This document shows positions 8,429-12,297 of a stretch of DNA of 64,000 nucleotides, one piece after another. The stretch lies in assembly GCA_963782525.1 (NCBI GenBank), contig CAWAKC010000001.1:544001-608000 (forward strand), written 5' to 3'. Every line of letters begins with the position of its first letter. Position 1 is the first letter of the stretch. Source of the DNA: Candidatus Bathyarchaeota archaeon. Lineage in GTDB: Archaea > Thermoproteota > Bathyarchaeia > Bathyarchaeales > Bathycorpusculaceae. The notes under the pieces are model-generated. The model was not told the origin of the DNA. It saw only the letters and a program-made list of their open reading frames with translations, and searched no databases. A program made the position numbers and the translations under genes.

Positions 8429-9598
8429 TTATCCTATTTGTTTGCCGCATTTCTCACAATACACAGCGTACACTTTGTTGTTTGAACCACAAAAGATGCA
8501 GAACTTGGTATCTTCAGAAGCGGCACTATCATTTTGCGGAGCGATCGTTTCAGGAGGAGAAGCTGGTTCATTATTTTGGGATAGCTTTGGTTTTCTTACT
8601 GACCAAACAGCGAGAATCACTGAAGCGACAATTGCAAACAGAATAATTACAAAAAATACGGGGTTTTCTGCGATTAGGTTAAATGATAAAGGTAGAACTG
8701 GTTGAACGCTTGGTCCAGAGACATCGGGAGAAGCAGATGTTGTGGGATTTGGGTCTAAAGGTGCCGAAGTTGGCGTCGGTCGCAACGTTGTTATGCTTTG
8801 GGGATTAGTTAAGGATGGCTCAGTAGTCGGTGTTACCTCGATATCAGGAATGTACTGTTTGCTTAGGTCTATACCATAAACGTAAGCGGTCTTACCTTGG
8901 AACTCATCAGGCAACTGCCCAATCGTGAAACCTACTCCTGTAGTTTCAGCGTAATAGTATGTTTGATTGTTGTAAGGCCAATATGTACCGTGAAGGCCAT
9001 CTCCAAGAACTCCAACTGCCAAATGATCCGTTGGATTAATGAAAACTGCACCGTCGCCCAGGCTGAGGATCAATGTAGCGTAAAGTATGGCTTTGCAATC
9101 GCAATCTCCAGTTTGATCCACCAAAGTTTCAATCGGGAATCGTGGATACTCTTCAAACCCAGTTGTGTTAAGATCAGAGTTGTAAGTGATACTTTGGACA
9201 AAAGCTAAAACAAAGTTTGCTTGCTCGTAGGAATTGTACCCGAGTTGTGTTGTAGTTTCATTTAGCCTTTCAGCCAAATTCTGGATATAGGGATCTCTGG
9301 TTGTGGTTATCATGTCATAGCCAGCAGGTCCATCGCGTGTTCGAGTGGAGTCTGGAACAGATTTGTAAACGTTGTAGAGTTCCTGAGGAATACTAAGGTT
9401 CCAGTCCCAATGTTTCCCGTAATAATCCCACGAGAATGACCTGTCATAGTACCCGTCTGTTTGTGCAGCTACTGTATGAGAAAGCACTATAGGAGCAGAT
9501 ATGATAAGCGCCAAAAATACAATAATTAATAGTCTGATTGGTTTCTGTTTCAGCGACAGTCGACTCATCGTTACCATTTCGATGATGGTAATGTTCAT
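8429..9598 (-). CDS. Membrane-anchored transglutaminase-like protein with C-terminal zinc ribbon
   Basis: Signal/TM segment, FPIETLVDQTGDCDCKAIL, H-LAVGV, YYYAETT, T/P-rich linker, TM, CIFCG...CEKCG. Confidence 0.8.
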   Translation of the reverse strand: MNITIIEMVTMSRLSLKQKPIRLLIIVFLALIISAPIVLSHTVAAQTDGYYDRSFSWDYYGKHWDWNLSIPQELYNVYKSVPDSTRTRDGPAGYDMITTTRDPYIQNLAERLNETTTQLGYNSYEQANFVLAFVQSITYNSDLNTTGFEEYPRFPIETLVDQTGDCDCKAILYATLILSLGDGAVFINPTDHLAVGVLGDGLHGTYWPYNNQTYYYAETTGVGFTIGQLPDEFQGKTAYVYGIDLSKQYIPDIEVTPTTEPSLTNPQSITTLRPTPTSAPLDPNPTTSASPDVSGPSVQPVLPLSFNLIAENPVFFVIILFAIVASVILAVWSVRKPKLSQNNEPASPPETIAPQNDSAASEDTKFCIFCGSNNKVYAVYCEKCGKQIG

Positions 9599-9704
9599 AA
9601 TCTACCGTTTAAAACTTGTCCCAAATCATTATCCAAAGGGATTTGATGAACACAAAGACAAAGGGTTATGTATATTGCCAGTTGGAAAATAATGTTGTAG
9701 AAGA

Positions 9705-9986
9705 CTATTTTTGTTTGATTATACCATAACTCTGCTTTTTCCAAGCGTCTCTAAACTTGTTGTAGTAGTCTATGGGTTGGAAAACAGGTGCATAAGTTAA
9801 TTGCCATTCAAGCCCGCATTTACATACTGCATAGACCTGCTTGTTTTTGGTGTCTTGGCAAATCTGCAACAGTTCTTTTCGGCATTTTGGGCAATAGTAC
9901 GGTCCATTCACCATTTGTTTAGCATCTTTGGTTAGGATTTTCATGCGGCTGCCCGGAATTTTATGCCTATCCTTTCCTGAACTCAT
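9705..9986 (-). CDS. Elf1-like transcription elongation factor zinc ribbon (divergent)
   Basis: Basic N-terminus, YYCPKC...VCKCGLE, then PVFQPIDYYNKFRD, matching the Elf1 pattern. ATG at 9986. Confidence 0.6.
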   Translation of the reverse strand: MSSGKDRHKIPGSRMKILTKDAKQMVNGPYYCPKCRKELLQICQDTKNKQVYAVCKCGLEWQLTYAPVFQPIDYYNKFRDAWKKQSYGIIKQK

Positions 9987-10308
9987 CGTTTTCAACCTAA
10001 CTATCAATTAAACATGAACCATCAGCAAGATATAGTATTCCATTAAAAAACAAGAATTTTATTGATTGGTGGGAAAGCTACTTGGAACTAAGAGAGAAAA
10101 AGTAATTTTTCCAATTAAGAAACTAGTGGCGGGCGGGGTTTAACCATTATAGAAAGAGGCTTAATGTTTTGTTTTTGGAGAATACAAAATAGACTCCGCC
10201 TAGACAAATTAGAAGAATTAGAGCATATAAGGACGGCTTAGCAATTATTACTTATTTTAGATTCATAAAACTCATATTCTTTTTACAGCAAAGAAAAGAC
10301 TGATACAT

Positions 10309-10455
10309 ATGGCTCATTGTCCTAGTTGTGGCAAAATAGTTGAGAAACCCTCAAGCACCCTGAAGAATCAATGCTTTACTATAGAAGCATACAATTGTGG
10401 AAGATGTCACCATAACTTCAAGGTCACAGTCAATAAATCAAGTTATATCATATAA
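10309..10455 (+). CDS. Small 48-aa zinc-ribbon protein (below the ORF-track cut-off)
   Basis: Hand translation: MAHCPSCGKIVEKPSSTLKNQCFTIEAYNCGRCHHNFKVTVNKSSYII*, with two CxxC pairs. Confidence 0.65.
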   Translation: MAHCPSCGKIVEKPSSTLKNQCFTIEAYNCGRCHHNFKVTVNKSSYII

Positions 10456-10548
10456 TTTCTATAGCCCCAAAAAAGTTCTTAATTGTCTTTATAGGCAGAA
10501 TTGAATAGTCTGGACTCAAAATTGAAGGATTGGTCAAATGAAAATTAA

Positions 10549-10950
10549 ATGTCTAAGTTAGAATGCCTATGCAAGAAGATGAGTTTAGCGCAGATACTTT
10601 TGACAGAGAAGGTAGCATCAGGTATGCTATTGGTTCGCCATTATTCTCTTGGTGACAAAGTCTCTCATAAGCCCCAGTTTACTTATTGCAAGATAGACGA
10701 CTTGGATTCTCTGAAAACTTTATTAAAAACTCAGGGTATCTCTCTGAATACTGAAAAGGCAATAAGTGGTCAAATAGGTCAAAGTGAAAGTAAAGAAATA
10801 CATGACCTAATAAAACCTGAAAGGAGCCTTAGTCAGCAAAATACATGCGGCCGTCGTCTAGTCTGGTTTAGGACTTTAGCCTTCCAAGCTAATGATCCCG
10901 GGTTCAAATCCCGGCGACCGCACCATCTCTTACTTTTAAATTTCGGCTAA
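10549..10950 (+). pseudogene. Decayed ORF reading through tRNA-Gly; candidate Int(N) fragment of a split tyrosine integrase
   Basis: The ORF stays open into and through the tRNA. It has a Cys pair and VRHY...KPQFTY, and sits in AT-rich context. Confidence 0.4.
10847..10925 (+). tRNA. tRNA-Gly(TCC), CCA encoded, C5:A68 acceptor mismatch
   Basis: GCGGCCG...TTAGC-CTTCCAA-GCTAA...CCGGG-TTCAAAT-CCCGG-CGACCGC-ACCA. Anticodon at 10883-10885. Confidence 0.93.
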
Positions 10951-11029
10951 GAGAAAATCATTGACTGATTAGTCGAATTGATAGGTAAATGTTATAAAAC
11001 AAACCTATCGCCATAATGTTGCAGGTGAC

Positions 11030-11576: not shown

Positions 11577-11780
11577 TTGAAAATGAGCGATGTAAATATG
11601 GCAACCATACAGTTATGTGGCGATAAACAAAACTTTATCCTTGACAAAAAAGACTTCAAAACAGGCAGTAAAGGCTATTATGGAACAGGCAAGATGGTCG
11701 CTGGTGGAAAAAGATACCAGATAGGCATTCAAGTTGTCGAAATCGGTTCTAAACCTAAAGAGAAAGAAGAAAAGAAATAG
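11577..11780 (+). CDS. Small basic hypothetical protein
   Basis: KKDFKTGSKGYYGTGK...GKRYQ...VEIGSK. An SD-like aggtga lies upstream. Confidence 0.7.
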   Translation: MKMSDVNMATIQLCGDKQNFILDKKDFKTGSKGYYGTGKMVAGGKRYQIGIQVVEIGSKPKEKEEKK

Positions 11781-11811
11781 GATTAATCTAATTTTTTATC
11801 CGTTTTTTTGT

Positions 11812-12297
11812 TTACGGGACAATTGACGCACTGATTATGGTTACGCTTGTACGTGGTTTGTCATTTGAGCCGGTTGGAACTTTGGCGATTTTGTCTACGA
11901 CATCCATTCCCGAGATGACTTTGCCGAACGCTGGGTGCTTGCTGTCCAAGAAGTTGTTGTTGACTTGGTTGATGAAGAATTGACTGCTTCCCGTGTTTGG
12001 ACCTGCATTCGCCATTGATATTGTGCCTCGGTCGTTGCGGTTAGTTCTTGTGAATTCGTCCTTAATCTCGGGAATTGAAGGGTCGCCGTATCCTGTTCCA
12101 GTTGGGTCACCGCCCTGAATCATAAAGCCAGGGATGACACGGTGAAAGATGGTGCCGTTGAAGGTTCCCTTTTGGACGAGGTTTTTGAAGTTGCCGGTCG
12201 TGATTGGCATGTCATTTCTTAGAGCGATGATGATGTCGCCCATGCTTGTGTGTAGTAGAACTTTAGTTTCAGGTTGATTTGTTGATTGTCCTGACAT
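11812..12297 (-). CDS. Cyclophilin-type peptidyl-prolyl isomerase (cytoplasmic)
   Basis: FHRVIPGFMIQGGDP, SMANAGPNTGSSQFFIN and HPAFGKV. Confidence 0.95.
   Translation of the reverse strand: MSGQSTNQPETKVLLHTSMGDIIIALRNDMPITTGNFKNLVQKGTFNGTIFHRVIPGFMIQGGDPTGTGYGDPSIPEIKDEFTRTNRNDRGTISMANAGPNTGSSQFFINQVNNNFLDSKHPAFGKVISGMDVVDKIAKVPTGSNDKPRTSVTIISASIVP

Follow-up and report, generated by a model that had tools for sequence, protein, structure and literature searches.

What is to be made of a tRNA gene through which a protein-coding frame runs unbroken and whose acceptor stem does not close? The question is raised by a locus in a 64,000-nt stretch of the genome of a Candidatus Bathyarchaeota archaeon (NCBI GenBank assembly GCA_963782525.1, contig CAWAKC010000001.1, positions 544,001 to 608,000; hereafter the window, in whose coordinates positions are given), where a program-listed open reading frame (ORF) of 133 aa on the forward strand (10549..10950) extends through a tRNA-Gly(UCC) gene. 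A preliminary description, made from the letters of the window, had explained both features together: the ORF would be part of a split ('suicidal') integrase aimed at the tRNA's 5′ half, and the tRNA a hybrid, mismatched where an incoming 5′ strand met the 3′ strand of the host. Our analysis supports the first of these ideas and separates it from the second. Very probably an old integrase insertion left a dead N-terminal integrase half, Int(N), at tRNA-Gly(UCC), and the mismatch is a separate, inherited allele.

ARAGORN places the tRNA gene, with its encoded CCA, at 10847..10925 on the forward strand, and it is the sole tRNA-Gly(UCC) in the 2.87-Mb assembly (37 tRNAs by ARAGORN; BLAST with the tRNA as query). 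It scores 61.7 bits with the Rfam tRNA model (gathering score 29), the alignment containing exactly one non-standard pair, located in the acceptor stem: between the 5′ strand GCGGCCG (10847–10853) and the 3′ strand CGACCGC (10915–10921), C5 (10851) lies unpaired opposite A68 (10917). Owing to this one position the canonical fully paired acceptor stem is not attained; the D, anticodon and T arms all pair, in agreement with the structure first described. A check for 7-bp acceptor stems flags three of the 37 tRNAs, this one included, and one of the remaining two is a truncated call. A base-call error can be excluded, as the gene with C5 and A68 (75-nt body) recurs in 36 of the 120 species genomes of the genus that were surveyed, or in 38 if two genes with a 23-nt intron are counted, and 33 of the 36 exact C5 genomes share one and the same gene body. 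Metagenome contigs of relatives (Logan) break at the tRNA ends when aligned to the window, and neither 10851 nor 10917 is among the differences listed for them (40 of 76); these contigs represent relatives, the sampled words being present to at most 0.24 in the best run. A single contig, from an RNA library, spans 10745–10936 of a relative; it may be DNA and is not taken as evidence of transcription. Since two congeners (G023 and G094; handles of this kind denote genomes, G000 being that of the window) carry a compensated pair change in the T stem, yet leave 5:68 unpaired, the tRNA is a functional gene under selection in which C5:A68 is tolerated.

The DNA directly 5′ of this gene, at 10538..10846 on the forward strand, is recognisable by tblastn homology and by alignment to intact relatives as the putative dead N-terminal half of an SSV-type ('suicidal') tyrosine integrase. 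The true start of this pseudogene is ATG 10538 (MKIKCLS), which is followed after seven codons by an in-frame TAG (10559–10561), and the remnant contains at least two frame changes, from the frame of 10549 into that of 10563 and back to the former from about 10632. Within the intervening frame, the segment FDREGSIRYAI (10599–10631, in ORF 10563..10655) aligns with FLNKEGNIKYARIRHY of the intact relatives, so that both the decay suspected earlier and the coherence of the alternative frame are borne out. The Cys/His pattern of the intact relatives, CxxC...HxxH, reads CLC...HYSL in the window (HYSL replacing HYSH). The CxC had also been counted as decay; CLC is indeed present, but this one-codon-shorter variant occurs in G010 and G020 too, and is therefore not decay private to the window copy.

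The final ~35 codons of ORF 10549..10950 are nothing other than the tRNA gene and 25 nt past it in translation. Without this tail, the remnant matches the Int(N) of a relative, G021, at 47% over 98 aa (tblastn, whole 2.87-Mb genome, E 1.2e-20) and P0002, one of the full-length integrases, with 48% identity across 97 aa (E 7e-17). These matches decide against the notion that the ORF is a product of chance in an A/T-rich spacer, with no mobile-element history. Some frames through a tRNA gene and its leader are poorer in stop codons, and no Pfam family matches ORF 10549..10950 itself, both of which would be expected of a chance frame; but protein homology to the N-domains of full-length integrases (whole-genome E values of 7e-17 to 1e-20) and the recurrence of this ORF 5′ of the same tRNA in many species make such an origin extremely improbable.

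Both halves of the split gene are found together in G021 (locus L038), where an intact 143-aa Int(N) ORF (9715..10146), beginning MKIKCYSGVECKVCH...VRHYSHLD, runs into a full tRNA-Gly(UCC). Some 4 kb upstream sits a copy of tRNA positions 1–44, followed by a 230-aa ORF, the C-terminal half or Int(C), which scores 33.7 bits with Pfam family PF16795 ('Archaeal phage integrase'), above its cutoff of 27, and also matches the PHROG 5127 integrase; direct matches to the PDB chains of the SSV1 integrase are weak (E ~0.1). Further upstream of this newer element lie a Zn-ribbon gene, an older truncated N-half and tRNA positions 1–44, and since this window-like arrangement persists there, G021 is likely to have resembled the window before its newest insertion.

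The unsplit form of the gene is also represented. Among 39 candidates found in a search with the G021 Int(N), three (P0001–P0003, 396–415 aa) are full-length, each combining the same N-domain with PF16795 (31.6–35.3 bits, cutoff 27), and the G021 Int(C) aligns to the C-terminal 225 residues of these proteins with 44% identity; Int(N) and Int(C) together therefore correspond to one integrase, as had been anticipated. Residues R253, K298, R349, R364 and Y374 are invariant in all three, in an order that fits the R..K..AxxR..Y motif quoted for Int-pTN3 (PMC5495485), as judged from the sequences; a family profile built from the three sequences retrieves no PDB chain at E ≤ 1e-2. All four full-length int genes located in genome records (L089–L092) contain within them 40–41 nt of the 5′ part of tRNA-Arg(CCT), 97.6–100% identical and corresponding to positions 1–41 (4–43 in one gene); two of the four frames are open, one has a single stop and one has many. 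At a fifth locus, L093, Int(N) runs into a genuine tRNA-Arg(CCT) gene. On these comparisons, the attachment site carried by the element (attP) is a tRNA 5′ half lying inside the integrase gene in sense orientation, and integration would split the gene. The equivalent site in the window is predicted to be tRNA positions 1–44 (10847..10890, forward strand), going by the G021 copy, the tRNA-Arg(CCT) copies and the minimal site of pTN3.

In total, the scan of genome records yielded 11 loci, each from a record with Bathyarchaeia, Bathyarchaeota or MCG-6 in its title, in keeping with the earlier suggestion of a bathyarchaeal family with a Zn-finger/VRHY N-domain. It is a sizeable family: 1181 representatives match at E ≤ 1e-3, of which 199 reach E ≤ 1e-30. 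The best 150 representatives comprise one full-length protein, seven Int(N)-only proteins and 62 fragments, the others being Int(C) whose lead is short in 56 and long in 24. In all seven Int(N)-only proteins the tail reads as a translated tRNA gene, one of them identical to the tRNA-Gly(UCC) tail, so that homologs of the ORF do adjoin tRNAs as predicted. Outside cellular genomes the family left no trace in the collections searched: tblastn with P0002 found nothing at E ≤ 1e-3 in 72,556 plasmid and 50,697 phage records (the presence of pTN3 among which is unchecked), and a scan of IMG/VR with the family profile found no relative.

A further possibility is that the ORF, or its Int(N) part, has been domesticated and works as a Zn-finger protein, perhaps by binding the attachment site. 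Open Int(N) genes with no nearby Int(C) in G094, G114, G118 and G022 are what this would predict. The copy in the window, however, stops after seven codons, has lost the Cys/His pattern and undergoes two more frame changes, the copies in its relatives G010 and G023 are broken elsewhere, and the 35 C-terminal residues are merely translated tRNA, on account of which we consider a working protein at this locus very unlikely.

For the dead integrase half, we propose the following course of events. The intact gene, of ~400 aa, would encode a Zn-finger N-domain, a linker specified by the first ~41–44 nt of a tRNA (attP) and a catalytic domain. When attP recombines with the 5′ half of the chromosomal tRNA, this gene would be split, with Int(C) placed at one junction (attL), beside the old tRNA promoter and following a useless duplicate of the tRNA 5′ half, and Int(N) at the other (attR), directly 5′ of a rebuilt, functional tRNA. 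The ancestor of this genome and of its two closest relatives, G010 and G023, would have acquired such an element at tRNA-Gly(UCC) and afterwards have lost the attL side, Int(C), most of the cargo and the native tRNA promoter, retaining a small Zn-ribbon gene and Int(N), which then decayed. The decay differs among the three genomes, each copy being broken at different sites, and Int(N) is intact in G003 and G021. Because the logic of SSV1 and pTN3 integration places the element-derived tRNA part at attR, the first ~30–40 nt of the tRNA and its present promoter would both have come from the element. To this extent the hybrid tRNA of the preliminary description stands, by reasoning from mechanism, although not the corollary that joining the two strands produced C5:A68. 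The TATA-like sequence ctaataaaa lies within the remnant at 10807–10815 (forward strand), 32–40 nt 5′ of the tRNA, and the equivalent position is A/T-rich in most type-A remnants (one of two classes of Int(N), type A and the divergent type B, found at this tRNA in the genus). It may be because of the promoter it carries that the remnant persists.

Comparison with unoccupied relatives delimits the inserted islet to 10054..10846 (forward strand), between the promoter region of an Elf1-like gene and the tRNA. This Elf1-like Zn-ribbon gene (9705..10007, reverse strand) forms a left flank that is conserved across the genus, and the syntenic right flank (11577..12297) consists of a 67-aa ORF on the forward strand and a cyclophilin-type gene on the reverse strand (11812–12297). 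Unoccupied relatives have a spacer of 75–190 nt from the Elf1-like gene to the tRNA, in place of which the window has 793 nt; the G+C content here is 0.35 (9501–11000) compared to about 0.42–0.50 in the surroundings. Directly 5′ of the tRNA, 26 of 67 classified congeners share the conserved motif ..agataaacttaaatta..atatggac.., which we take as a candidate for the native tRNA promoter; it was not found in the islet of the window.

Besides the dead Int(N), the islet contains a 48-aa Zn-ribbon gene (10309..10455, forward strand), which, from the ORF list and its protein conservation, looks like a real small gene: the product is 94–98% identical in G010, G023 and G094, and its best Pfam match is below cutoff. 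Among the loci fetched, homologs lie 5′ of the tRNA only beside integrase-derived DNA (G021, G055, G058, G070 and G094), for which reason this gene is likely to be the last of the old element's cargo. Four weaker paralogs are encoded elsewhere in this genome, two on C2 and one each on C3 and C6.

The origin of the mismatch can be judged from the distribution of alleles in the 120 genomes. A68 is present in every allele of the genus, combined with CC, TC or TT at positions 5–6; alleles with T5 occur in 53 genomes (GCGGTCG in 20, GCGGTTG in 33), and outside the genus the tRNA-Gly(UCC) pair is C5-G68. One genome with an aberrant anticodon arm, G002, was kept apart from these counts. The upstream DNA of 67 loci was sorted by tblastn and by reading the last 62 nt, leaving 3 CC, 6 TC and 15 TT genomes unclassified since their loci were not fetched. 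The 35 classified CC genes stand behind a native promoter in 16 cases, a type-A Int(N) in 14 and a type-B Int(N) in 5, with none behind other DNA; the 14 TC genes behind a native promoter in 8, type A in 1, type B in 4 and other DNA in 1; and the 18 TT genes behind a native promoter in 2, type A in 12, type B in 4 and none behind other DNA. Altogether, a half-integrase lies 5′ of tRNA-Gly(UCC) in 40 of the 67 classified species (~60%). As C5:A68 is common at native-promoter sites without any integrase remnant (16 of 35), it does not appear to be a scar of insertion, and is best described as an inherited allele, one of three that segregate whatever lies upstream. The suggestion that element and host strands were joined to give the mismatch is thereby contradicted, 16 islet-free species with native promoters having C5:A68 too, an outcome that the preliminary description had itself named as speaking against it.

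Under the scar hypothesis, an attP reading GCGGCCG would have been joined to a host 3′ strand adapted to T5. This is mechanistically possible, if SSV1 and pTN3 are a guide, as the part of the tRNA 5′ of the crossover at attR would come from the element, and integrations that altered a tRNA are on record for SSVK1 and TspEXT12c_IV1. T5 alleles do exist in the genus, as the hypothesis requires, and are basal on LysRS trees, so that C5 appears to be the derived state. Two adjacent bases separate CC from TT, and the alleles are also marked at position 26, which is A in 20 of 20 exact TC genes and T in 67 of 69 exact CC and TT genes (exceptions G098 and G084); no TC gene with T26 is found among the 89 exact genes, and the absence of this intermediate speaks more for block replacement than for two point changes. 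Beyond the 16 native-promoter genes, however, several observations are at odds with a scar. Clean excision restores the original chromosomal site (attB), so that C5 cannot be left behind by an element that has departed. A single sub-lineage of Int(N), that of the CxC variant, stands before TT in G020 but before CC in G000 and G010, and intact type-A Int(N) is joined to TC (G003), TT (G021) and CC (G094, G114 and G118) alike. The allele instead tracks the nearest host relatives with native promoters, which are G019 for G003, and G005 and G014 for the G000 clade. Finally, tRNAs with C5-G68 outside the genus have a different anticodon stem, and a foreign attP of that kind would have added mismatches, none of which are seen. 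A scar origin of C5:A68 is accordingly quite improbable.

It is possible in principle that elements have shuffled CC, TC and TT among hosts in less direct ways, through insertions that bring their own copy of the first ~40 nt of the tRNA, gene conversion between attL and attR, and excision or deletion. TT lies behind integrase-derived DNA in 16 of the 18 classified genes, although related species are not independent observations. The LysRS trees show C5 and TT lineages interleaved, on a poorly resolved topology, and place G014 (CC) and G015 (TT), both with native promoters, as sisters. These trees are too poor for allele changes to be counted, with 13 of 26 inner branches open in the protein tree and 10 of 21 in the DNA tree; G020 and G026, which gave no LysRS match, are absent from them, and the DNA tree has no outgroups. 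If the shuffling were real, the tRNA-Gly(UCC) locus would be a battleground of long standing, with the tRNA presumably driven from a half-integrase in 40 of the 67 species, and repeated insertion of elements would have spread the unpaired C5:A68 onto native-promoter loci, making the mismatch element-borne in an indirect way, but we think this unlikely.

A number of points weigh against the conclusion that an old insertion left Int(N) beside an independently inherited allele. Neither an Int(C) nor an attL for tRNA-Gly was found in this genome by tblastn or by BLAST with the tRNA, which matched other tRNAs only, and the orphan tRNA-Gly 5′ half followed by Int(C) that the preliminary description envisaged is likewise absent; for this reason the insertion at the window locus is deduced from the remnant and its relatives. 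The 120 genomes yield one attL/attR pair for tRNA-Gly(UCC), that of G021, in which both copies are TT, so that the side supplying positions 5–6 is not directly shown by it, and in which the reading frame is broken between the tRNA copy and Int(C), indicating that this element is decaying as well. A genus-wide search for the attL pattern gave three matches, the G021 attL and two intron-bearing tRNAs, and no Int(C) or attL lies 5′ of the open Int(N) in G094, G114, G118, G093, G086 or G070 within the 4.7–15 kb fetched. In the first three, the lack of any Int(C) in the ~15 kb around an open Int(N) might indicate that Int(N) has a use on its own. Some classifications of upstream DNA were made by eye only (native 6 of 26, type A 8 of 27, type B 7 of 13). 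The crossover point is borrowed from work on SSV1 and pTN3, and ctaataaaa (10807–10815) is a candidate replacement promoter.

The closest parallel in design is with the pTN3-like integrases of Thermococcales. In pTN3, attP and attB share 41 bp and the minimal site spans positions 2–44 of tRNA-Leu (PMC5495485, Cossu et al. 2017), and integration leaves the tRNA, in the words of that paper, 'separated from its original promoter'. Int-pTN3 also has extra subdomains and an activity resembling homologous recombination. A 2021 review (PMC8371274) states that archaeal integrases mostly target the 3′ part of tRNAs, and a passage in it calls the pTN3-like enzymes unique in archaea for their use of the 5′ half. 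As far as these accounts go, the bathyarchaeal family is alike in having attP inside the ORF and the gene split on integration, in targeting the tRNA 5′ half (40–41 nt of tRNA-Arg(CCT), positions 1–44 of tRNA-Gly(UCC)) and in cutting the rebuilt tRNA off from its own promoter. It differs in its N-domain, which has a C..CxxC..HxxH pattern, in its several targets within Bathyarchaeia (Gly-UCC, Arg-CCT and others indicated by translated tails), in P0002 having no BLAST-level match in the plasmid and phage collections (with the reservation about pTN3 given above), and in its hosts, which belong to another phylum than the hyperthermophilic Thermococcales; metagenome runs from peat, permafrost and wetland contain close relatives of this strain, though not the strain itself. 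We therefore describe the family as one that appears to work like the pTN3-like integrases, and do not file it as a member of them.

With the SSV1 and SSV2 integrases of fuselloviruses (PDB 3VCF, 4DKS, 3UXU) the family shares the PF16795 catalytic domain, the location of attP inside the gene and the partition into Int(N) and Int(C), but identity is too low for phmmer or BLAST. The overlap region of SSV1 is placed at the anticodon loop (PMC8371274); judged against the published descriptions, the family differs from SSV1 and SSV2 by using the tRNA 5′ part in sense, so that the element must bring a promoter. The pT26-2-type integrases (Badel et al. 2020, PMC7253208) offer a precedent, in the sections of that paper that concern them, for pervasive split copies, for many tRNA targets within one family and for a translated att site that forms part of the protein. 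They differ in forming a similarity-network cluster separate from the pTN3-like and SSV-like ones and in being thermophile-borne (PMC7253208), as well as in using the tRNA 3′ part, which PMC8371274 attributes to archaeal integrases other than the pTN3-like.

The family joins a pTN3-like design to an SSV-type catalytic domain and a new N-domain, in a new phylum, and no description of suicidal integrases in Bathyarchaeia was found in the literature searched. Going by the published accounts, it would represent a second, sequence-unrelated lineage with the 5′-half-targeting suicidal design, beyond the pTN3-like elements of Thermococcales. One tRNA locus offers a series of empty sites, fresh insertions, stacked remnants and dead halves, which could lend itself to studies of how hosts grow dependent on a promoter within a dead mobile-element gene, and also of how a tRNA tolerates an acceptor-stem mismatch in dozens of species. 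For annotation, ORFs crossing tRNAs in these genomes would be better labelled as Int(N) halves than as hypothetical proteins.

Other members or fragments of the integrase family were encountered in the course of these searches. The intact 403-aa integrase at L090 (2155–3366), with attP inside it, lies among ordinary-looking metabolic genes and not among obvious virus or plasmid genes. In the genome of the window, a second Int(N)-like stretch (G000:C1:315898-316176), 34–49% identical to the N-domains, terminates within the 3′ end of a tRNA-Thr(GGT) on the opposite strand; an antisense T-arm-like piece comes before an Int(C)-like pseudogene (G000:C11:57285-58317) that is 54% identical to P0002 and has a single frame break; and tblastn detects a 39-aa Int(C)-like fragment on C7. 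The C11 pseudogene was considered as the partner of the tRNA-Gly Int(N) and rejected, the T-arm-like piece before it indicating a different target. In view of the tRNA-Thr(GGT) and C11 loci, relatives of the family may also use tRNA 3′ parts in antisense.

Additional rearrangements were noted at tRNA-Gly(UCC) genes of other congeners. In G016 (L054, 5632–5750) the tRNA has a 28-nt insertion after about position 30, inside the att region, and the 23-nt introns in G054 and G133 (L138/L139) follow position 44, which is the att boundary; a proposal that attP copies carry introns into tRNAs is cited in PMC8371274. The tRNA also appears to be targeted at its 3′ half. G008 (L040/L041, C6) has copies of positions 29–79 and 35–79 lying 5 and 25 kb downstream, the farther of these 3′-half copies adjoining a 28%-identical integrase homolog on the opposite strand, and G003 (L042) has a 3′-half copy 6.6 kb downstream. 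The G002 gene (L026/L053) occupies the syntenic site behind a native promoter, with an altered anticodon arm for which ARAGORN reports the anticodon CTA; the gene may be broken, the assembly may be at fault, or this may be a suppressor-like variant. G020 (L039, 7106–7204) contains a decayed second copy of the tRNA (positions 6–79, with several changes) 740 nt 3′ of the intact one, and between the two copies lies an ORF on the opposite strand that we take to be AbrB/SpoVT-type antitoxin-like.

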